Positions 30,484 to 46,786 of a stretch of 64,000 bases of DNA are shown in pieces. Each line of letters begins with the position of its first letter. Position 1 is the stretch's first letter. A program made the translations under genes and the position numbers. Below the pieces are notes generated by a model. The model did no database searches, was not told the origin of the DNA, and saw nothing but the letters and a program-made list of their open reading frames with translations. Origin of the DNA: Verrucomicrobiota bacterium (GTDB lineage Bacteria; Verrucomicrobiota; Verrucomicrobiia; Limisphaerales; Palsa-1400); NCBI GenBank assembly GCA_049510745.1, contig JBEKYR010000002.1:1-64000 (forward strand), written 5' to 3'.

Positions 30484-31076
30484 GCGGATTCTCGCCATGG
30501 GAGATACGAGCCGTGGGCGATGCGGCCTTCAAGAACCTGAATATCTTCGCGACACTTTGAAAAGATTTGGCGGTATCTTTTCGCGGCCTCGTAACCAAGC
30601 GTCTTGCGCCCGCCGCCGGGGTCATTTTGCAGTCGGCGAGTCGCGACCAACTTCTCAAAGTATTTTTCCTTGGGATTGTGCTCGTTGCGGATTTCCTGCC
30701 AACTCCAATCCGGCGGCAGGTCGTGGCCCGCAAGAACCCAAACCTCAAGCTCCTGCCAGGCATTCTCGGCGATCATAAACTTCGGCGCGCCGAGCAGCGT
30801 GTTCAAGTGCTGTTCCAGCCCGTCAAGGGCCTGACGGCGGTCGGATTCCCCGTCGCGATCGACACAGAGCAGAAAAAGATCAACGTGCCATTTGTTGTCT
30901 TCGACAACCTGCCGCAAGAGTTGGCGGTTTAGCGCCTGGACAATCCCGCCGATCAACGGGTCAGTGAGTACTCTCACGTTCGCTGGTTTTCCCAGCTTTG
31001 CGAACATCGCCGCGATTATCGGCTGGAGGATGAATTGGTCCTTGCGAAAGTCTTCCGGAATGACGAGTACGTTCAT
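30480..31076 (-). CDS. TOPRIM-like protein (DUF4276/RloB/AriB-like)
   Basis: VLVIPED..D, LLCVDRD (DxD), QELEVW (ExE) motifs; coupled to the ATPase gene. Confidence 0.65.
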   Translation of the reverse strand: MNVLVIPEDFRKDQFILQPIIAAMFAKLGKPANVRVLTDPLIGGIVQALNRQLLRQVVEDNKWHVDLFLLCVDRDGESDRRQALDGLEQHLNTLLGAPKFMIAENAWQELEVWVLAGHDLPPDWSWQEIRNEHNPKEKYFEKLVATRRLQNDPGGGRKTLGYEAAKRYRQIFSKCREDIQVLEGRIAHGSYLPWRESA

Positions 31077-32251
31077 TTCCGCTCCTCTTCAAGCGGGAAC
31101 GGCTGCGGTTTTCCCTCCGTGAATTCCATCGCGTCTTCCATCCAGGAACTTTCGTGCAAGCGCGCGATGTCTTGATTTTTAATCACGTCCATCAAATGCG
31201 GGATGTCCGGCAGTTGCTTCACGCGGCCCTCGGACGTGCCTTTGACTCGATAGACCAGCGCGGCGTTTTCCAGGTCTTCACGGCGAATGAGGCGCAATAC
31301 TTGCGGCGAATGAGTTGTGGCGACGACTTGGATGCCCCTGTTCCGGGTGGTGCTCGCTATCAAATCCATCAGCAACGCCAGGCGGGTTGGATGGATTCCG
31401 GTATCGATTTCCTCCAGAAAGTAAAACCTGGCCGGCTTGGGACCGAGCAACGCGGCCAGCATTCCCAGGAATCTCAACGTGCCATCCGATGCGCTTTTGG
31501 CGGAAGTTTTGCGTCCCCCTTCTTCCACCAAGTACACAAGAATCTTACCTTCGGCATCAGGCACGAATTTAAAACCGACCACATCCATCGGCGTCAGTTC
31601 CTGAATCCAGTGAGACAACGCCTGCTTAAGTTCGGGTTTTTCGCAGATGGCTTGGAGGACGGAGGAAAGATTGTCCCCCCGGTCACCCAGAATCAACTGC
31701 CCCGGAACAGATGGTCTGCGCATTGATTCGGGATCCAGATCGATGAAGCGAATCGATCCCAATTTCAAGTCGTCTACCGGGGCTACTCCAGGACTAAAAG
31801 TGAGTTGCGGCTGCATGGGGAAGCCATCATAGTCCTTCATTTCCCAAACTGGCGGTATCGGTGGTTTGTCGTAGTAAATCCCTTCCTTGCGCATTTGAGG
31901 CGAACCGCCATGTAGACCGCATTGGACCGTAATCTCGTAGCGAAACGGAAAGGCGCTCACCTCGTTCATCACATACTCCACTTCGAGCTTGAACTCCTCC
32001 TCGCCGGAGAAACATATCTCCCGCGTGCCGCCGCGGATGCCGCTCCACTCGGGTTGTCCGCCCTCGCCCCATTTACCCCCGATGATCTCCGCCAAATTAT
32101 AGCCGCGGCCAACGCCGTGCAGGAAACGCAGGGCGTCGCGGATGTTGCTTTTGCCCGACGCGTTGGCGCCGACCAAAATGCTGAACGGCCCAAAGTGAAC
32201 TTCCGCCTTCCGGAAGTTTTTGAAATTCGTCAATGTTAACTTCTTTATCAT
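31073..32251 (-). CDS. ABC/SMC-like ATPase (AAA_21 type)
   Basis: LTNFKNF, GANASGKSN, ASDGTLR signature, LEEIDTGIHP, TTHSP. Confidence 0.88.
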   Translation of the reverse strand: MIKKLTLTNFKNFRKAEVHFGPFSILVGANASGKSNIRDALRFLHGVGRGYNLAEIIGGKWGEGGQPEWSGIRGGTREICFSGEEEFKLEVEYVMNEVSAFPFRYEITVQCGLHGGSPQMRKEGIYYDKPPIPPVWEMKDYDGFPMQPQLTFSPGVAPVDDLKLGSIRFIDLDPESMRRPSVPGQLILGDRGDNLSSVLQAICEKPELKQALSHWIQELTPMDVVGFKFVPDAEGKILVYLVEEGGRKTSAKSASDGTLRFLGMLAALLGPKPARFYFLEEIDTGIHPTRLALLMDLIASTTRNRGIQVVATTHSPQVLRLIRREDLENAALVYRVKGTSEGRVKQLPDIPHLMDVIKNQDIARLHESSWMEDAMEFTEGKPQPFPLEEERK

Positions 32252-32353
32252 CGCGCCTACGGCTGTTGCGGGGGCGAGTTTAGGCGATTTGCGGGCGTTT
32301 GTAAGCAGAATTTCATTCGACATTCGCGGGGGCGTCCGTTCAAGATAGGGGAG

Positions 32354-33154
32354 ATGCATTGGCCGGCGGATTATCACATCCACACGCCGCTCTGCCGGCA
32401 CGCCCAGGGCGAGCCGACGGAATACGCGGCGCGCGCCGTCGCGCTTGGACTGGACGAAATCGGTTTTTCGGACCACTCGCCCATGCGGCGCGATGATTTC
32501 GACAATTGGCGCATGCGGTTCGACCAGTTGGGGGAATACGTCGAGAAGGTGCGCCGGGCGCAAAAGGATTTTCCCGCCCTGTCCATCAAGCTGGCGCTGG
32601 AGGTCGATTATTTGCCGGGACACGAGGACTGGATTCAGGAATTGGCGCGGCTGCATCCGTGGGATTATTTTATCGGCTCGGTCCATTACGTGGCGGATTC
32701 GTGGGCGCTGGATAACCCGGACGACATGCGCAAGTGGACGGAACGCAATCCGTACGAAGTCTGGTCGGTCTATTTCGAGCGGCTGGGGCTGGCGGCGGAA
32801 TCGGACCTTTTTGAAATCATCGGCCACGCGGATTTGCCGAAGAGATTCAAAATTTACCCCAAACAGAATGTCACGCCGCTCTTCGAGCGTTTCCTGGATA
32901 AAGCCGCCAAGAGCGATGTGGCGATCGAGGTGAACACGGCCGGCCTGCGCAAGGATTGCCGGGAGATTTACCCCAGCCGCGCGTTCCTGGAACTGGCGGC
33001 GCGGCGCAAAATTCCCATCACCTTTGGGTCCGACGCGCACGCGCCGGGCGAGGTGGGAAGCGACTTTGCGGCGGCGCTGGAATTGGCCCGCGCGGCCGGC
33101 TACACGCACACTTGCCGGTTCGACCAGCGCGAGCGCACCGAGACCCGACTTTGA
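32354..33154 (+). CDS. hisJ: PHP-family histidinol phosphatase (HisJ/HisK type)
   Basis: DYHIHT, GFSDH, GSVH, GHADLPK, EVNTAG, GSDAH. Confidence 0.88.
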   Translation: MHWPADYHIHTPLCRHAQGEPTEYAARAVALGLDEIGFSDHSPMRRDDFDNWRMRFDQLGEYVEKVRRAQKDFPALSIKLALEVDYLPGHEDWIQELARLHPWDYFIGSVHYVADSWALDNPDDMRKWTERNPYEVWSVYFERLGLAAESDLFEIIGHADLPKRFKIYPKQNVTPLFERFLDKAAKSDVAIEVNTAGLRKDCREIYPSRAFLELAARRKIPITFGSDAHAPGEVGSDFAAALELARAAGYTHTCRFDQRERTETRL

Positions 33155-33173
33155 ATTCTTAGCGAAAGACGCC

Positions 33174-33800
33174 ATGAAATTCCTCTCCCTGCTCCTTGCC
33201 GCCGGTTTCCTGGCGTCCTTCGCGGGCGCGGAAACGGTTCATTTCGACTCCGCCAAACCGGGTGCGTTGCCCGAAGGTTGGCTGGCTGGAGTGACCGGTC
33301 CCGGAGCCGCGCAATGGGCGGTCGCCGCCGATCCGGTCGCGCCCGGCGCGCCCCGCGTCCTCCAGCAGTCCGGCGCGGTTCCTTCCCACAGCTATCCCTG
33401 GTGTGTGAAGAAGGATGTTTCGTTGCAGGACGGGTTTGTCGAGGTCAAATTCAAGCCGCTTTCCGGCTGGGAGGACCAGGCGGGCGGCGTCGTCTGGCGG
33501 TGGCAGGACGGCGACAATTATTACGTCGCCCGCGGCAACGCCCTCGAAGAGAACGTCATCCTTTTTCGCACCGTCAAGGGCGCCCGGCGGGAGCTGCATC
33601 GTTGCGCCGTCAAAGTCGCACCCCATCAGTGGCACACGCTGCGCGTCGATTTCAAAGGCAGCCATTTCACCGTGACGTTCGATGGCCGGAGTGTGATGGA
33701 ATGGGATGACGAAACCTTCAAAAAGGCGGGAGCCGTCGGCGTCTGGACCAAGGCCGACAGCGTGACGGCGTTTAATGACTTCCAATTCGACGGCCACTGA
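33174..33800 (+). CDS. Secreted ConA/LamG-like beta-sandwich protein (DUF1080-like)
   Basis: Signal peptide; DQAGGVVWRWQDGDNYYVAR, WHTLRVDF, GVWTKADSVTAF. Confidence 0.7.
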   Translation: MKFLSLLLAAGFLASFAGAETVHFDSAKPGALPEGWLAGVTGPGAAQWAVAADPVAPGAPRVLQQSGAVPSHSYPWCVKKDVSLQDGFVEVKFKPLSGWEDQAGGVVWRWQDGDNYYVARGNALEENVILFRTVKGARRELHRCAVKVAPHQWHTLRVDFKGSHFTVTFDGRSVMEWDDETFKKAGAVGVWTKADSVTAFNDFQFDGH

Positions 33801-33900
33801 CAAAGAAAGATTTGCGGTTTACAATTTGCGGGATTGGCTTTAGTCAATGTCGCGCGTTTCGGCTCGGAATAAAAAGTGCGAAGACATTCCAAACTGAATC

Positions 33901-37591: not shown

Positions 37592-37877
37592 AAGCGTGTC
37601 CTTTGCTCCCAGATGATAACAACCCTCACAACAGACTATGAGTGACGGCTCGTTAAAATTGTCCCGACGCTTTGTTTCGCCCCTGAAGATTCATCGTTCC
37701 CCCGGGGACCCAGATAAACTCAACTCGATCATCTGACAACAGAAACGTTACGATAAAGCGAGCGGGAAATCCAGAAAAAAATTCGCTCTTTTCCTGCCGC
37801 CCGCGCGCGGCAAGGCCAGGGCCGGTGCCGGCGGTCGCGGCTCGACAGCGTCCGGGCCTGGCGATAGAATCCAGAAG

Positions 37878-38102
37878 ATGGAAAGCGCTCAAGATGAAGC
37901 ATCGGCCCTGCCGCGCCAATGGCTGGAGGAATTTGAAGCCGCCGCCCGCCGTCCCCTGGAAACGCGCTTTCGTTATTCCTTTATTCACACCTACAAACCG
38001 GTGTTGGACGACGCCCCGTATCGCGCCTTTGACACCATGGAAGACTACCGCCGCTGGTGCGAGGCCAACCTTCCCGACTGGCTCGGCTATGGCCGCGTTT
38101 GA
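37878..38102 (+). CDS. Small hypothetical protein, partner of the nucleotidyltransferase
   Basis: 74 aa, overlaps the start of the next gene. Confidence 0.65.
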   Translation: MESAQDEASALPRQWLEEFEAAARRPLETRFRYSFIHTYKPVLDDAPYRAFDTMEDYRRWCEANLPDWLGYGRV

Positions 38103-38559
38103 TTACCGCCAAGCCGAGGAAATCCGTGATGTCTTCCGCGCCCATCACGTTCGCTACCTTTTTCTCGGCAAGTCGGGGGCCATTCTGTTGGGCTATCCCG
38201 ACACGACGCAGGACGCCGACCTTTTTGTCCAACGGTCGGCTGAAAACGGAAACGCTCTGGTGGGCGCGCTCCGCCAGTTGGGTTTTGCCCTGACAGATCA
38301 ACAGGCTGGCGAAATCATGCGCGGCAAGGATTTCGTCCAGTTGAAGAACGGCCCGTTCGATTTGGACCTGGTGTTTGCTCCCGATGGAATTGAGCGATTT
38401 GAGGATGCCTGGCGCCGGCGGGTCGATGTGGAAGGATTTCCCGTCTGCCACATCGACGACATAATCGCCAGCAAGGCGGCAAGCAACCGGCAGAAGGACC
38501 GTGAGTCCCTGCCCCGCCTGCGTTCGTTCCGCGAGTATTGGATCAAATCGCGGAAATGA
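38089..38559 (+). CDS. Nucleotidyltransferase-fold protein
   Basis: LFLGKSGAILLGYPDTTQDADLF (TxDxD), C-terminal SKAASNRQKDRE. Confidence 0.7.
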   Translation: MAAFDYRQAEEIRDVFRAHHVRYLFLGKSGAILLGYPDTTQDADLFVQRSAENGNALVGALRQLGFALTDQQAGEIMRGKDFVQLKNGPFDLDLVFAPDGIERFEDAWRRRVDVEGFPVCHIDDIIASKAASNRQKDRESLPRLRSFREYWIKSRK

Positions 38560-38782: not shown

Positions 38783-40462
<1,680 letters not shown>

Positions 40463-40540
40463 TTTGACGCGGGAAAACGCCGGTTCGCTTCGACGCGGGC
40501 CGGCGCCCGGTCCGCGCTTGGGGAAAGCGCGTTTCCCTGG

Positions 40541-41707
40541 ATGAAAACCCTGCACCTCTACCTGACCCGCCAAATGCTGGCGACGTTGGGCATGACGGTG
40601 TTCGTGGTGACGTTTGTTCTGCTGCTGGGCAACGTCATCAAGGAAATCCTCAACCTGCTGGTCAACCGCCAGGCCACACTGAGCCTGGCCCTGCACGGCA
40701 TCCTGCTGCTGATACCCTACGTTCTGGCCTTCTCGCTGCCCATCGGGATGCTCACGGCGGCCTTGCTGGTTTTTGGGCGGTTCAGCGCGGACCAGGAATT
40801 GATGGCGGCGCGCGCCAGCGGGATCAGCCTGGTCAGCCTGATCACGCCGATCCTGCTGCTGAGCGTGGCGGTCAGCGGCTTGTGCGCGTGGCTCAACTTC
40901 GACATCGCCCCGGCCAGCCGGATGGCTTACAAGGAACTGCTCTTCCGCGCCTCGGCCAAAAATCCGTCCGACATCCTGCGCCCCGGCGAGCCGGTGCCGT
41001 TGGGCAATTACACCATTTTGGTCGGCAAAAAGGACGGAACCAACCTGGAAAACGTCATCGTCACCAAATGGACGCGCACGGGCGAACTGAAGGAATGGCT
41101 GCAAGGCCCAACCGGAACGCTGTTCTCCGATCCGGCCCGCAAACAAATCATTCTGACGGTGCATTCGGCCCAAGGCTGGTTCCACGAAACCAACGGGTGG
41201 GAGCCGAAATTGTCCGGGGGCGACCCGCAAATCCCGCTGGAAATCGAGTCGCAGGCGCAGACGATGCTGGCGGTGCCGCCCAGTGACATGACCTTCCACC
41301 AATTGCGCGCGGAGCTGGAACGATTGCAGCGGCCCCTGGCCAACCCCGCGCCGCCGGCCCGCCCGCAGAGCGGGGCCGTGAAAGGCGAGCGCGAGGTCCG
41401 GCAAATTGTCGAAGACATAACCACGCCGGTGATGGTGTACATGCACCGCGAAGTGGCGTTTTCGTTTGCGTGCATTGGTTTTACGCTGGTGGGGATTCCG
41501 CTGGGCATCCGGGCGCACCGGCGCGAGACCAGCGCGGGGGTGGCCATCGCGCTGGTGTTGATGCTCATTTATTACAGCTTCGTGGTGCTGGCCCAGGCGT
41601 GGGTCGGCCATCCCGAACGCGCCCCGTACCTGATCGTCTGGCTGCCGAACTTCATTTTCCAGGCGGTGGGCGCGGTGCTGCTCTGGCGGGCAAACCGGCG
41701 CGGGTGA
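40541..41707 (+). CDS. lptF: LptF/LptG family LPS export permease
   Basis: GRFSADQELMAARASGIS, LVGIPLG, WLPN. Confidence 0.85.
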   Translation: MKTLHLYLTRQMLATLGMTVFVVTFVLLLGNVIKEILNLLVNRQATLSLALHGILLLIPYVLAFSLPIGMLTAALLVFGRFSADQELMAARASGISLVSLITPILLLSVAVSGLCAWLNFDIAPASRMAYKELLFRASAKNPSDILRPGEPVPLGNYTILVGKKDGTNLENVIVTKWTRTGELKEWLQGPTGTLFSDPARKQIILTVHSAQGWFHETNGWEPKLSGGDPQIPLEIESQAQTMLAVPPSDMTFHQLRAELERLQRPLANPAPPARPQSGAVKGEREVRQIVEDITTPVMVYMHREVAFSFACIGFTLVGIPLGIRAHRRETSAGVAIALVLMLIYYSFVVLAQAWVGHPERAPYLIVWLPNFIFQAVGAVLLWRANRRG

Positions 41708-41724
41708 GATTATTGAAAATATAA

Positions 41725-41945
41725 GAATGAGTGAATCAGTGAATGAGTGAGTGGAGCAGGGAAGGCGGATGGACCGATGGCCAAGGGTGCGGGCCACAGA
41801 TGAACACGGATGAACGCAGCGCGGCAGCCGCAACCCAGACCTGCCCAGAGGAAATTGACTCGCGCAGAGGCGCAGAGGGCGCAGAGGAATATCAAGAAGA
41901 AAAGCGATTCATGATTTTCTCTGCGCCTCTGCGGCTCTGCGCGAG
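41725..41945. repeat. Composite short-repeat / REP-like region
   Basis: GAAT(G/C)AGT x3; cacagatgaacacggatgaacgcag; long hairpin ctcgcgcagaggcgcagagggcgcagagg ... ttctctgcgcctctgcggctctgcgcgag. Confidence 0.7.
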
Positions 41946-42266
41946 AAAATCTCGTTGGAAATGCGCGATTTTTCACTATAGTGGTGCATGCTTTTCCCGA
42001 GACTTCGCTCGGGAAACGAGGCTTCGCAGCCGGCATCCTGCGACCGGCTTGTTTTCGTTGCGACCAACATGTTGGTCTTAGTTTTTGGATAGCAGAACAG
42101 ATTGACTAAAAGACCATGCGCTTGAACTCGACTTTGGTCGCGCCGGCTTGATGGAATTGGCAAGGGTTTTCCCAGTGGCGGCAAGGAACGACCTAGTGGC
42201 GGGCGACCCTCGCAGAAGGTATAAAGGCACTTGCGTGTCTCACCAACCCGCGGGTGCGGATTGGGC

Positions 42267-42308
42267 GGAGTCTGGATACGCTCAATATCCGGACTCCGTT
42301 TTGTTTTT
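42267..42308 (+). terminator. Terminator-like hairpin
   Basis: cggagtctggata-cgctcaa-tatccggactccg followed by TTTTGTTTTT. Confidence 0.55.
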
Positions 42309-42410
42309 ACGGGTTGGAAGCGAATCAGTGAGTGGAGCAAGGAATGCTATCGCATACACCCATCAATTGGTAGCAGGCGGGGCGTTCGTGCCAAAAAACT
42401 ACTGATAAGG

Positions 42411-43013
42411 CTACCCTTTTGTGAATGGCTTCGCATCTTCGTCCTGAGTCAAGCGGCTGAACTGCGGGCCAATCGCCCTGTAATACTTCCGTTGCCGTCC
42501 GGTGTAAGGCTGCTTCACCGCAGGCTCAACATCTCGCAGGACTAATTGAGCGATGCGCACGCCGGGAAACAAATCGAGTGGCATCGTTCCAACATTCGAT
42601 AGTTCCAGAGTTACCACGCCGCTGAAACCGGGCTCAATGCACGTAGCCGTAGCAATTTGAAGCCCCACTCGAGACCAGGATGAGCGCCCTTCAACTTGCC
42701 CTTCCAAATCCGAGGGCATCTGGAGATATTCAAATGTGCAACCTAACGCTAACTGGCCAGGATGCAGCACAAACTTATGTCCAAATCTCACTACTCGTCG
42801 CTCCTGAAGGCTGCGCAACTGAATATCCGACAGCACGAACGGGTTGAGCGATTCCCCCATGTGCATGCGGAAAACTATGAATTGATTGCCAAGACGCAGA
42901 TCAACTGAAATGTCTCCAAACTGCTTCGGTGACAAAATCGGCGTAATCACGAGCTGCTTTGCATCAGTTTCCCGCAACCTCGATTCAATTCTCTCTTTGC
43001 TGAGTGTGCTCAT
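42411..43013 (-). CDS. dcd: dCTP deaminase (trimeric dUTPase-like fold)
   Basis: SVDLRLG, FVLHPGQ, EGRSSWSRVGL, IEPGFSGVVTLELSN, PGVRIAQL. Confidence 0.9.
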   Translation of the reverse strand: MSTLSKERIESRLRETDAKQLVITPILSPKQFGDISVDLRLGNQFIVFRMHMGESLNPFVLSDIQLRSLQERRVVRFGHKFVLHPGQLALGCTFEYLQMPSDLEGQVEGRSSWSRVGLQIATATCIEPGFSGVVTLELSNVGTMPLDLFPGVRIAQLVLRDVEPAVKQPYTGRQRKYYRAIGPQFSRLTQDEDAKPFTKG

Positions 43014-44478
43014 GTTCGGAGATAGATTTGATCTCTGGCCCGAATTTCGTCTGGACGTAGCTCACCTCGATGGCTTTGAGAACCAATCGAAACAGATCAT
43101 CAAAATTACTCGGCGTTCCCCAACTGGGGTTTTCCTCCAGGCGCAAGCAACTGTACGCCCAAGCGGCGTTCCAAATGTCAGCTATCGCAGCCGGTGCCAT
43201 ATCCGGCCACGTCCCTGTCTCGTTCGGAGGGATTCCCTGCTTTAACCTCAGCACGAGCTCGTGGATGACTCCCAAGTTTTGCTTGAGTTGATACGGAGCT
43301 TGTGATTCCGTCGGAAGGAACGTTAACACTTCCTCTTGAACAGCAGGCCAGTTCTGCTGGATCACCTTGTACGCCTCGAGCGTGCGGATGTCGGCGTTTA
43401 TTTCCAGGACATCGTCATTCTCGGAAGCCAAATCCCGCACTTTCTGTAGAAAGCGAACATATGGGAGAATCAAGGCACGGTATTCTGAATTACCGGCGAA
43501 ACAATCCTCTTCAACCAAATCCTTGGTGACTACTTCTGATATCGTGCGTAACCGCATGCGCCAAGGAGGATAACGACCACAGGCACACGGATTGGCATCG
43601 AGCTTGAATCGAACAGAAAACTCGCCGAGACAAGCAAGAGCCGCCGGCCCCAACAAATGCGCGCCAACAAAGTCGCTGATTAATTCTTTGAAACCGGAAC
43701 GAGTCAATTCCATCGTCTCCTTCATCGTTTCAGAGACGTACTGGTCCCGGTAAATTTTTTTTAACAACTCCTCCTGAGGACTCCTGTTGGCGTTCTCATA
43801 GTTCATCTTGATTCTATGTTGGATGACGTCCTTCGCCTGTGCCCAAAGGCCATCAAACTCAGCAGTCAGCCAGTCAGTAGCAAGAATGTGCCCAACTTCG
43901 TGTCCCCAGTTGACATGCATCAATACGTTCATTCGTTCAACACGCGGAAACGAAATGCAATAGATGCGGCACTTACCGCTTTCACCGACAGCCTGCTCCC
44001 AATCAGAAAGCGGCATCCACTTACCCAAAGAGGCAAAGCAGGCTCTCAAAGTCTCGACGAACGCCCCCTTGATGCTATAGTTATAAGACCATTGCGGCCG
44101 CAAAATAAAGCAGCACTCCTTAGGAGTATGCTGTTTAAGAAATGCCTCGGTTGCCTGGACCATACTCCACGGCGTTTGCTCAATTCGAGAACGTTCGGCA
44201 AAGCGGAGGTGCTCTCCCATGCTCCGTAAGATGGCGTAAATATAAGGGAGTTTCTGTACGGGGGCGGAATCGAGTCTTACGCCTACCAACGCGGCCGTGC
44301 GGCCTATTAGCTGGCAGAAAGTGACAGCAGTTTCCGTAGGGTAATCCTCCGCCTCCTCTAGCCTCGCTGCCAATTGCTCCAAGCTACTGGCGTGGCGAAA
44401 CAACTCTCGTCTGAGGGTCGCACTACGCCAATCCTCGTTTTGGTCGGCGGGTTTACCATCTTTAGAAGTACTGGCCAT
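42985..44478 (-). CDS. 497-aa HExxH zincin-like protein
   Basis: GHEVGH, ELISD, YPPWRMR; lower GC; overlaps the dcd start. Confidence 0.7.
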   Translation of the reverse strand: MASTSKDGKPADQNEDWRSATLRRELFRHASSLEQLAARLEEAEDYPTETAVTFCQLIGRTAALVGVRLDSAPVQKLPYIYAILRSMGEHLRFAERSRIEQTPWSMVQATEAFLKQHTPKECCFILRPQWSYNYSIKGAFVETLRACFASLGKWMPLSDWEQAVGESGKCRIYCISFPRVERMNVLMHVNWGHEVGHILATDWLTAEFDGLWAQAKDVIQHRIKMNYENANRSPQEELLKKIYRDQYVSETMKETMELTRSGFKELISDFVGAHLLGPAALACLGEFSVRFKLDANPCACGRYPPWRMRLRTISEVVTKDLVEEDCFAGNSEYRALILPYVRFLQKVRDLASENDDVLEINADIRTLEAYKVIQQNWPAVQEEVLTFLPTESQAPYQLKQNLGVIHELVLRLKQGIPPNETGTWPDMAPAAIADIWNAAWAYSCLRLEENPSWGTPSNFDDLFRLVLKAIEVSYVQTKFGPEIKSISEHEHTQQREN

Positions 44479-44507
44479 TTGCCAAAGAAAGAGAACGCTC
44501 GCTCCGA

Positions 44508-44996
44508 CTAGGTTGAGTTCGCCACGAAAAGTTCATTATCTCTCGGTAAGCCGTTATCCGTGAGCTGCATCAGAAGACGTTGAGATAGCTCCGATAAGAG
44601 TGCGGATGCAAGTTGCAGCTTATCCGAGGGTAAAACACCCTTGCCTTTTGATCCGCCCCTAATCAAGAACTGGTATAATCTGCGGAGGAATTCCACGACC
44701 TCGTTTTCCCGCTCTAGACCTGCCTCACGCATCCGTCGCTCGATGCCAATTAATGCCGCATAAAAAGTGGGCCGCACCTCCGTCGCCTGAACCGCCAAGT
44801 TGCCAATACTTCCAGCACCATTAGAACTACCGGCAGTCCAATCTACCTGATTCAAGAATCCCCCAGCCCATACAAGAAGCTCGCGGTCGGTCGAAGTCGT
44901 CGGCTGTCCTTTGCTTAGTTTGCTTAACACGGTAGCGGCAGAGTCAAGTCTGCTGCTCACTTCAAAAAGACGAGATGATTCAATTAAATCTGCCAT
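44508..44996 (-). CDS. Alpha-helical hypothetical protein, first gene of the dcd operon
   Basis: AAGGAG RBS before ATG at 44996; 162 aa. Confidence 0.7.
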   Translation of the reverse strand: MADLIESSRLFEVSSRLDSAATVLSKLSKGQPTTSTDRELLVWAGGFLNQVDWTAGSSNGAGSIGNLAVQATEVRPTFYAALIGIERRMREAGLERENEVVEFLRRLYQFLIRGGSKGKGVLPSDKLQLASALLSELSQRLLMQLTDNGLPRDNELFVANST

Positions 44997-45256
44997 AGTC
45001 GCTCCTTCCACGCTCAGATATTAACCTCATTTCTCTAGTCCGTCACTTCTAATGCACCCGACATACTTTGCCATAGCCGGTGCCCGTTCATCACCAGATG
45101 CGGCTTCCGTGCTCATGCTTGGGCGGATTTAAGCATTGATTTCGTGAGAAATCGGACTTCAGGGCCACAATACATAGTGTTAATCTAATGTCAAGCCCCA
45201 ATTTGTGGGGTTTTTGCTCTATTGCAGCAAATGCTGCCAGATGCGAGGAGGGCTTG

Positions 45257-45742: not shown

Positions 45743-46786
45743 ATGTTGGCTGCTGAAACCAGTCGGGTTGCCGTCCCCATCAGTTCACCGCCGCCGCAAA
45801 CCTCGGGCTGGAAAGAGATTGCGGAAGCGGTGGAACCGTTTCTGCAAAGCGTGGCCCGGCGTCTGGAGGCGCAAACGGCGGAGTTCGAGCCGCAAATCGC
45901 CGATTTCGCCCGGTATGCCCTGACCGCCCAGGGCAAGCAGCTTCGCCCCATCCTGGTCTCGCTTTGCGGCGAGGCGGTCGGGAGGCTCAATGAATCGCAT
46001 CTGACGGTGGCGGTGATCATTGAAATGATCCACCTGGCGACGCTGGTGCATGACGACGTGATCGACGAGGGGCAGTTGCGGCGGGGCCGGCTGACGCTGG
46101 CGGCCAATTGGGGCAATGAGATTTCCGTGCTGCTGGGCGACTGCCTGTTCGCGCACGCGCTCAAACTGTCGGCCAGCTTCCCCACGCCCGAGATTTGCCG
46201 GGCGGTGTCGGCGGCGACCAACACGGTTTGCGCCGGGGAGATACTGCAAAGCCGTTCGCGGGGGGATTTTGGCGTGACGCGCGGGCAGTATTTCAAGATG
46301 CTGGCGATGAAGACGGGGGAATTGTTCGCGTTGTCCTGCGATCTGGGGGCGCACTTGAGCGAGGCGACATCCGCGCGGCGCCAGGCCCTCCGGCAATACG
46401 GGCTGGCTCTGGGCACGGCTTACCAACTTTACGATGACTGCCTGGATGTGCTCGGCTCGGAGGCCGCCGCCGGCAAAACACTCGGCGCGGACCTGGCCAA
46501 GGGGAAAATGACGCTGCCCATCCTGGTGGTGCGCGACCGCGCCAGCGCGGAGGACCAGTTGCGGTTGCGCCTTTGGCTGGCCAACTGGGAACCGGGCTTC
46601 CTGGCGGGTGTGGTGGAATTGATCGTCAAGTACGACGCTTTTACCGAGTCGCGGGCCATCCTGCAGCAATACCTTGTGGCGGCCCGGCAGGCGTTGACGA
46701 CGTTGCCGCCGTCGGAGGGCCGGGCGGGGCTGATGGGCTTGACACACTTTCTTGCGGAACAAACCGAGGCCCTGGGGGTTTACTAG
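45743..46786 (+). CDS. Polyprenyl diphosphate synthase
   Basis: GKQLRP, HDDVID..RRG, KTGELF, QLYDDCLD. Confidence 0.92.
   Translation: MLAAETSRVAVPISSPPPQTSGWKEIAEAVEPFLQSVARRLEAQTAEFEPQIADFARYALTAQGKQLRPILVSLCGEAVGRLNESHLTVAVIIEMIHLATLVHDDVIDEGQLRRGRLTLAANWGNEISVLLGDCLFAHALKLSASFPTPEICRAVSAATNTVCAGEILQSRSRGDFGVTRGQYFKMLAMKTGELFALSCDLGAHLSEATSARRQALRQYGLALGTAYQLYDDCLDVLGSEAAAGKTLGADLAKGKMTLPILVVRDRASAEDQLRLRLWLANWEPGFLAGVVELIVKYDAFTESRAILQQYLVAARQALTTLPPSEGRAGLMGLTHFLAEQTEALGVY

Follow-up and report, generated by a model that had tools for sequence, protein, structure and literature searches.

Why does a gene for a dCTP deaminase lie directly behind the genes for a small helical protein and a predicted zinc peptidase? 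The question is raised by a 64,000-nucleotide stretch of a Verrucomicrobiota bacterium (assembly GCA_049510745.1, contig JBEKYR010000002.1, positions 1 to 64,000 of the forward strand; hereafter the window), whose minus strand carries, in this order, orfA (44508..44996), orfB (42985..44478) and dcd (42411..43013), encoding the proteins A (162 aa), B (497 aa) and Dcd (200 aa). A prediction made earlier from these letters alone (the original prediction) had proposed an undescribed defence operon in which a protease-gated Dcd depletes nucleotides or loads uracil. Comparison across genomes, metagenomes and viral contigs shows that the three genes are a conserved, co-inherited and mobile unit, which we tentatively read as an anti-phage switch.

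A conserved and mobile cassette

As the original prediction supposed, homologues of B do neighbour dcd: among 29 loci from GTDB genomes, 26 carry dcd directly 3' of B, two of the remaining three reach a contig edge and the third (L034) lacks dcd, and a small co-oriented open reading frame (ORF) precedes B in 28 of the 29. Approached from the deaminase, B stands before cassette-type dcd in 73 of the 75 metagenome loci that could be tested (at 95% dereplication, 64 of 66; the best 80 of 230 loci were taken, and the test called for at least 100 nt of upstream sequence), and in both exceptions a transposase gene stands 5' of a 5'-truncated dcd. A was recognised in 44 of the 46 metagenome loci open to this test, and the other two carry a divergent small ORF. 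The genes are packed with a median intergenic gap of -4 nt, and B and Dcd are fused in L026, L029 and G928 as well as in six representatives of 50% clusters. One record (P0131, E 5e-9) joins A to the N-terminus of B, where a pro-domain would sit. Searches for longer fusions involving A or B came back empty, a negative that weighs little.

B is rare in all samples of phyla, with 3/401 in its own phylum and 1/401, 6/331, 5/331 and 5/331 in four others (seeds included). Of 15 non-seed loci in the four other phyla, dcd comes directly after B in 11 (fused in one, decayed in another) and is absent from that place in 4. Among the hosts are Planctomycetota, Acidobacteriota, Desulfobacterota, Myxococcota, Ignavibacteriota, Spirochaetota, Proteobacteria and a methanogen, and distant triads were found on rhizobial plasmids. 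This sporadic occurrence, together with carriage on plasmids and on one viral contig, indicates mobility. A tblastn search with the window B returned no plasmid or phage record, whereas distant B and Dcd queries did find plasmids; B was present in 1 of the best 80 of 102 viral loci, and a scan of viral contigs for B gave a single 17-residue match with dcd absent.

Within the window, the tight packing, low G+C content and flanking genes originally described were all recovered. A gap of 29 bp separates orfA from orfB (44479-44507), and orfB overlaps dcd by 29 bp (42985-43013). The cassette span has a G+C content of 51.4% against 60.3% for the genome, with 20 of 2131 equal-sized genome windows as low, and at third codon positions its genes reach 0.50-0.58 vs. 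0.79-0.85 in rpsA, lptF, ispB, rpoE and mgtA (mnmG, 0.67). The flanks outside the cassette, both on the plus strand and both identified by family match, are lptF/lptG (40541..41707; LptF/LptG family) and a polyprenyl synthase (polyprenyl synthetase) gene (45743..46786), which are non-adjacent in the relatives checked. The mobile cassette itself extends over 42411..45032 on the minus strand, as delimited by its low G+C content and by alignment to another copy (L093; 68.5% nucleotide identity), which is confined to 42415-45032 and has different flanks, one of them resembling an integrase remnant as judged by eye. All three genes are under purifying selection relative to that copy (pN 0.19 for A, 0.20 for B and 0.08 for Dcd, with synonymous sites saturated). 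Since a 99.8% identical metagenome contig (L089) spans window positions 39068-45058, the junction between lptF and the cassette is not an assembly artefact. Neither terminal repeats bounding the cassette nor a tRNA gene or true Rfam RNA were found there. A sigma-70-type promoter-like site (TTGACA-16-TATTGT, 45167..45194, minus strand, ~170 nt 5' of orfA) matches 10 of 12 positions and is to be read as a consensus match only, because four such sites were found in the region vs. 2.4 expected by chance.

A dedicated dCTP deaminase with an altered feedback loop

Dcd is a trimeric, dUTPase-fold deaminase by its family scores (146.1 bits against TIGR02274, cut-off 92.8; 110.5 against PF22769, cut-off 27), it aligns with the structures of the Escherichia coli (1xs1) and Mycobacterium tuberculosis (2qxx) enzymes, including their C-terminal lid, and it carries the motifs read earlier (GRSSWSR, TLE and PGVRIAQL). 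To follow single residues we used an alignment of 53 rows, obtained by dereplicating 65 complete triads, dropping one copy replaced by an insertion sequence (IS; L019) and adding the window copy; fusions and three loci with an incomplete A are outside this set. S111, R115, A123 and E137 are invariant in 53/53 rows. The first, second and fourth align with Ser111, Arg115 and Glu138 of E. coli, which we take to be the catalytic residues, and A123 aligns with A124. The invariance of S111, R115 and E137 favours an active enzyme over a pure binder.

What sets the cassette enzyme apart from housekeeping Dcd and Dcd:dUTPase, with which it shares fold, catalytic residues and lid, is a His-less, shortened HVTA loop, a Trp at position 113 (found in phage Dcds as well), a branch of its own, its linkage or fusion to B and a non-vertical inheritance. 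In E. coli, this loop shifts into the central channel upon binding of the feedback inhibitor dTTP (PMC4827122, as far as its available text goes). All 50 matched rows (3 of the 53 went unmatched) lack the loop His (E. coli His121) and have a loop shortened by one residue; some other host Dcds naturally lack this His as well. Judged on the alignment, the change may have removed the feedback, altered the substrate or made the enzyme partner-dependent. A quick tree of 77 Dcds placed the 44 cassette copies on one side of a branch (SH-aLRT 92, short of the starred level), set against 17 other host and 16 phage enzymes.

The Trp of GRSSW was also considered as a marker of cassette Dcds and dropped because phage Dcds share it, although the scan pattern had selected for it. 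Among the phage Dcds themselves (viral contigs L170-L248) many have GRSSW, most keep the loop His while several lack it, and orfB accompanies 0/79.

The gene is not vertically conserved, in line with the original prediction. It is missing from both same-genus genomes (0/2), and 8 of 60 relatives, some of them incomplete genomes, have any match, of which seven are other dcd types and one (G023) is a cassette copy. Of the 29 cassette hosts, 15 show a further dcd-like match, 13 a single match and 1 no match. Neither A nor B was found beside the other dcd-like genes of these hosts (0/18 regions), and with the 44 cassette Dcds on one side of the branch, this comparison of sequences indicates that Dcd is dedicated to the cassette.

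A gluzincin-like protein family

B also retains the motifs read originally (GHEVGH, ELISD and YPPWRMR), here resolved as HExxH at 193-197, E265/D269 and Y303-P-x4-R309, followed by a conserved C-terminal PPNE domain. H193, E194, H197, E265, D269 and R309 are invariant in 53/53 rows, which, with the low pN against L093, argues that the pattern is not due to chance. The structural model (pLDDT 94) comprises an N-terminal three-helix bundle, a small sheet, the HExxH helix, a long hairpin, a Glu helix and the C-terminal domain, with H193/E194/H197 and E265/D269 on consecutive long helices. The sequence has the gluzincin pattern of HExxH plus a distal Glu as predicted third zinc ligand.

The family extends to 2352 representatives at 50% identity, and no Pfam, NCBIfam or PADLOC model fits B. 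PADLOC 2023 returned 0 families for A, B and Dcd at E values up to 1, and likewise for four distant B proteins, which agrees with the earlier view that this is not a named system. M48 (PF01435) gave no match for the window B, yet it is the Pfam family most often grazed by its homologues (by 5 of 100 members, with E 0.0035 at best and below the Pfam cut-off). U49 Lit (PF10463) did not match the window B either, and is not among the families displayed for those 100 members (25 of 36). In the Atlas, the closest clusters that bear a name are those of U49 (Lit) and M48 peptidases, and their score of 0.78 makes them no more than a lead. Two B profiles searched against PDB sequences reached E 0.4 at best, and neither PDB nor viral models yielded a Foldseek match at E 0.001; among the weak rows was an AR9 zincin (probability 0.63).

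Structural lists from VIA-align were dominated by helical bundles. Over the motif region the only non-bundle matches are gluzincins, namely ZMPSTE24 (Z 6.6, root-mean-square deviation 10.6, 213 aligned residues) and neprilysin (Z 4.9, deviation 4.0, 150 aligned), both weak. A resemblance of the N-terminal bundle to PezA/epsilon antitoxins (Z 7.2 and 5.7) was rejected as a common arrangement.

With these gluzincins and U49 Lit, B has in common HExxH and the downstream ExxxD, and its family carries [H/Y]P-x4-R; unlike them it has an extra N-terminal bundle, a long helical hairpin between H197 and E265 and the PPNE domain. The M48 motif reads HP-x4-R, a form found in distant members of the B family, whereas the near clade has YP-x4-R, with Tyr in place of the His. 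B is thus probably the representative of a new gluzincin-like family outside M48 and U49, and is predicted to be active.

A fast-evolving small helical protein

A is the most variable of the three proteins (mean pairwise identity 0.27 vs. 0.34 for B and 0.53 for Dcd) and is predicted to be an all-helical bundle (pLDDT 82), with a short tail past the last helix (NNGLP in the near clade) in which Pro is present in 49/53 rows. Neither a conserved catalytic residue nor a membrane helix (0/53) was found in the 53 rows. No Pfam, NCBIfam or PADLOC model fits, a usable Atlas match was not found, and structure comparison gave no specific fold match and no toxin fold. A CheA P1-like match (Z 7.0) was rejected, as the helical arrangement is a common one. 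We infer that A might be an inhibitor or a sensor of B.

A related pair in Argonaute loci

Four loci near integrases (L293:5442-10336, L294:2272-7244, L296:5229-10213 and L295:2313-6150) encode a PD-(D/E)XK nuclease and a long Argonaute-like protein together with a small ORF and a zincin homologous to B (98% profile match, E 1e-13), and lack dcd. Three of them (L293, L294 and L296) have the order PD-(D/E)XK nuclease, Argonaute, small ORF, zincin; in L295 the Argonaute is on the opposite strand, and in L293 an HNH gene lies 3' of the zincin. Pfam recognises Piwi in one of the four Argonautes, and the other three match that one by BLAST. Homology of the small ORFs to A is not detectable. Judging from these sequences, the pair of small protein and protease looks portable.

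The layout of nuclease then Argonaute recalls the PliAgo-type D-R operons, for which the available text names a nuclease, a regulator and a sigma factor and makes no mention of a peptidase (PMC9360449; Lisitskaya et al. 2022). The likeness is one of layout, and L293, L294 and L296 end with the small ORF and the B-homologous zincin. The B family may account for unnamed genes that end Argonaute operons.

A further operon (L297:2651-10230) encodes a protein of 637 aa that weakly matches the zincin profile, together with TIR-SLOG, astacin-like, lipase and amidase genes.

Defence genes beside the cassette

Several copies lie in or next to known defence systems. One is inserted into DISARM, between drmMI and drmABC (L032), another stands between DruE of Druantia and a type IIG restriction-modification (RM) gene (L018), and a third follows pglZ-brxL of BREX directly on its 3' side (L017). 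Copies near DruA (L026) and near RM genes (L010) were also seen, as were weaker defence-type neighbours at L011, L013, L023 and L030, and on rhizobial plasmids the triad sits between a multiubiquitin-E1/E2 (ubiquitin-like) operon and Septu or SIR2 genes. As control we took the surroundings of 13 further dcd genes in the cassette hosts (126 proteins; three regions that were dUTPase-like and two that were very short were excluded), which gave partial generic matches and one longer match to PD-Lambda-2_B; the 50 neighbour proteins of the cassettes scanned with PADLOC had been picked, mostly from Pfam results. The enrichment beside defence genes is suggestive, not proven. Co-occurrence with defence systems is seen for some copies, the statistical enrichment is weak and the window is not a defence island, its own copy being flanked by housekeeping genes.

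Adjacency of the triad to multiubiquitin and ThiF/E1-E2 operons recurs in unrelated hosts (rhizobial plasmids L251-L253, and L011). On these plasmids an IrrE/helix-turn-helix pair lies 5' of the triad, and the gene 3' of dcd varies (Septu, SIR2 or CoiA).

A proposed switch and its alternatives

Linkage, fusions, mobility, conserved catalytic motifs in B and Dcd, an altered feedback loop and, in a minority of loci, defence neighbours are what any reading of the cassette has to accommodate. With a confidence just short of even, we favour an anti-phage switch in which A restrains the protease B, and B, once released, switches Dcd on. The small protein A would hold the zinc-peptidase-like B shut, and B and Dcd would form a complex. 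Infection would then free B, either because a labile A is lost at host shut-off or because a phage protein displaces it, and the released B would switch on the attached Dcd. The active deaminase would drain dCTP while dUTP/dUMP accumulate, and phage DNA synthesis would stall. Because no trimeric or dimeric dUTPase was found in the source genome (a 94% complete assembly), dUTP might persist in this host, and uracil loading would be possible.

Several observations weigh against this switch. The fused B-Dcd proteins are single chains, which fits a complex and does not show cleavage, and B seems to have no need of Dcd as a substrate, since related pairs of small protein and zincin occur without dcd (L034 and the Argonaute loci). 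The zincin fold matches of B are weak (Z 4.8-6.6). The E. coli H121A mutant is reportedly inactive, so that a His-less Dcd could be slow or dead, and one distant cassette Dcd (L292) has kept the loop His. A search for a separate housekeeping dcd, suggested by the original prediction, found none: the window dcd is the only canonical one in the genome, accompanied by three divergent Dcd-fold genes, and 13 of the 29 cassette hosts likewise have no further canonical dcd. Lastly, defence neighbours occur at 9 of 29 loci (5 with strong, long matches) vs. 0-1 of 13 in the control (Fisher p 0.04-0.30), and most copies, the window copy included, sit among housekeeping genes. Of the interpretation originally offered, then, the conserved mobile unit has held, as has a gluzincin-like family coupled or fused to a dUTPase-fold Dcd with a branch of its own; the sole canonical dcd, the weak enrichment and the housekeeping surroundings of the window copy qualify the remainder.

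The portability of the pair keeps in play a wiring in the opposite direction. In its most general form, which we regard as possible though doubtful, the small helical protein is a "plug" that forms, with the new gluzincin, a portable module connected to various immune partners (a rewired trimeric Dcd here, Argonaute operons in other loci), and Dcd reads or makes a deoxyuridine nucleotide signal that fires the protease upon infection. A more specific version appears unlikely to us: the Dcd trimer would sense the rise of dCTP/dUTP during infection or make a signal, and A and B would be the killer, the protease cutting A or a host protein in a Lit-like abortive infection. The pair of small protein and zincin at the 3' end of nuclease-Argonaute operons without dcd is what a portable output module would look like, a B-Dcd fusion would tie the protease to ligand binding, and the Atlas lead to U49 (Lit) and M48 points the same way. 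Weighing against it, the invariant catalytic Glu exceeds the needs of a binder, A has neither a membrane helix nor a toxin fold, and the small proteins of the Argonaute loci have no detectable homology to A.

It is improbable that the cassette is a selfish toxin-antitoxin or anti-plasmid unit, with B-Dcd as toxin and A as labile antitoxin, whose benefit is the stabilisation of its carrier element. Such a unit would account for the sporadic spread and plasmid carriage, for a small upstream gene with translational coupling and for the IS-broken and decayed copies, yet many copies sit in chromosomes amid housekeeping genes, where no element remains to be stabilised, and others are inserted into defence operons; addiction and defence are in any case not exclusive.

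We find it quite improbable that a remodelled Dcd pocket deaminates the 5-methyl- or 5-hydroxymethyl-dCTP of phages, with A and B as regulators. Phages with modified cytosine evade RM, DISARM and BREX, and copies of the cassette do lie beside or inside such loci, but a substrate found only in phages would call for little regulation. The altered loop is the one that must move to admit a 5-methyl group, yet in dUTPases a shorter loop goes with a tighter pocket (both points from the available text of PMC4827122).

Accessory metabolism, in which a protease-regulated Dcd supplies dUMP for thymidylate synthesis where dcd or dut is lacking, would suit the sole canonical dcd of this 94% complete genome and its lack of a dUTPase match, the 13 of 29 hosts without a second dcd match and a Dcd score above the TIGR02274 cut-off, but can be given very little credence when 52 of 60 relatives have no match to Dcd, a further dcd-like gene is present in 15 of 29 hosts, the neighbours show no recurrent thymidylate or salvage gene and the cassette type of dcd was seen without B only in IS-broken copies.

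Relation to known systems

Kongming (KomABC) redeploys a deaminase of nucleotide metabolism in immunity and is a model for the alternative in which Dcd acts in signalling; its enzymes differ from those of the cassette, being an adenosine deaminase, HAM1 and Sir2 (a comparison by description only). AvcD of AvcID we take to be the same kind of defensive dCTP deaminase as the enzyme discussed next. Depletion of dCTP has a precedent as anti-phage defence, and the available text defines the defensive dCTP deaminase as one protein of 576 aa whose N-terminal kinase is followed by a zinc-dependent deaminase domain (Tal et al., bioRxiv 10.1101/2021.04.26.441389). By this definition, known defensive dCTP deaminases are kinase plus zinc-deaminase chains and not dUTPase-fold Dcds, as the original prediction had said. 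The window Dcd is not a single chain of over 350 aa with kinase and zinc deaminase, and has no PADLOC match. Cassette and Tal et al./AvcD enzyme are alike in the predicted outcome, dCTP deamination, and in being accessory, patchy and near defence genes; they differ in that the cassette encodes a dUTPase-fold trimer of 200 aa without kinase, together with a small protein and a zincin. In the full-text literature (which leaves subscription papers and supplements, such as large defence-prediction tables, outside its coverage) no published description of the cassette was found, and the available parts of PMC10733785 and PMC12697855 added nothing on it.

What would be new here, as far as the protein sequences tell, is a putative nucleotide-depletion defence by an unrelated enzyme fold joined to a protease module. 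If the switch is real, immunity based on dCTP would have arisen twice, from unrelated folds, a textbook housekeeping enzyme would have been recruited through an altered feedback loop and a protease switch, and an unannotated zincin family that Pfam, NCBIfam and PADLOC miss would gain a function class. If instead Dcd fires a portable module, this would amount to a new form of immunity that senses nucleotides and acts through a protease. Cassette dcd genes are annotated as housekeeping, and the unit, at only 2.6 kb, is directly testable.

Other observations in the window and genome

The source genome encodes further nucleotide-related proteins. At L004 (G000:C15:24412-27780) a divergent Dcd-fold protein with a hydrophobic C-terminus is encoded 3' of a papain-like peptidase, with a thymidylate-synthase-like gene (recognised by eye, no Pfam match) on one side and a P-loop kinase on the other, which looks like a second nucleotide-centred conflict cluster. 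L002 (G000:C48) encodes a Dcd-like protein of two domains (426 aa), and L005 (G000:C69) a protein of 422 aa whose N-terminal part is weakly Dcd-like. A 615-codon open frame at G000:C12:27698-29542 contains a zinc deaminase domain in the first half, ahead of a long C-terminal region.

Within the window, positions 41718-41953 and 42161-42347 hold dispersed intergenic repeats and a hairpin with 28-nt arms, of which the genome has many partial copies; Rfam microRNA matches there score below gathering. About 9 kb from the cassette, a 700-aa AAA_21 ATPase and an adjoining 214-aa ORF (31076-33803, minus strand) are possibly a defence pair. The C-terminal part of an ORF at 37825-38559 (plus strand), which has no Pfam match at 1e-5, resembles a minimal nucleotidyltransferase by eye.

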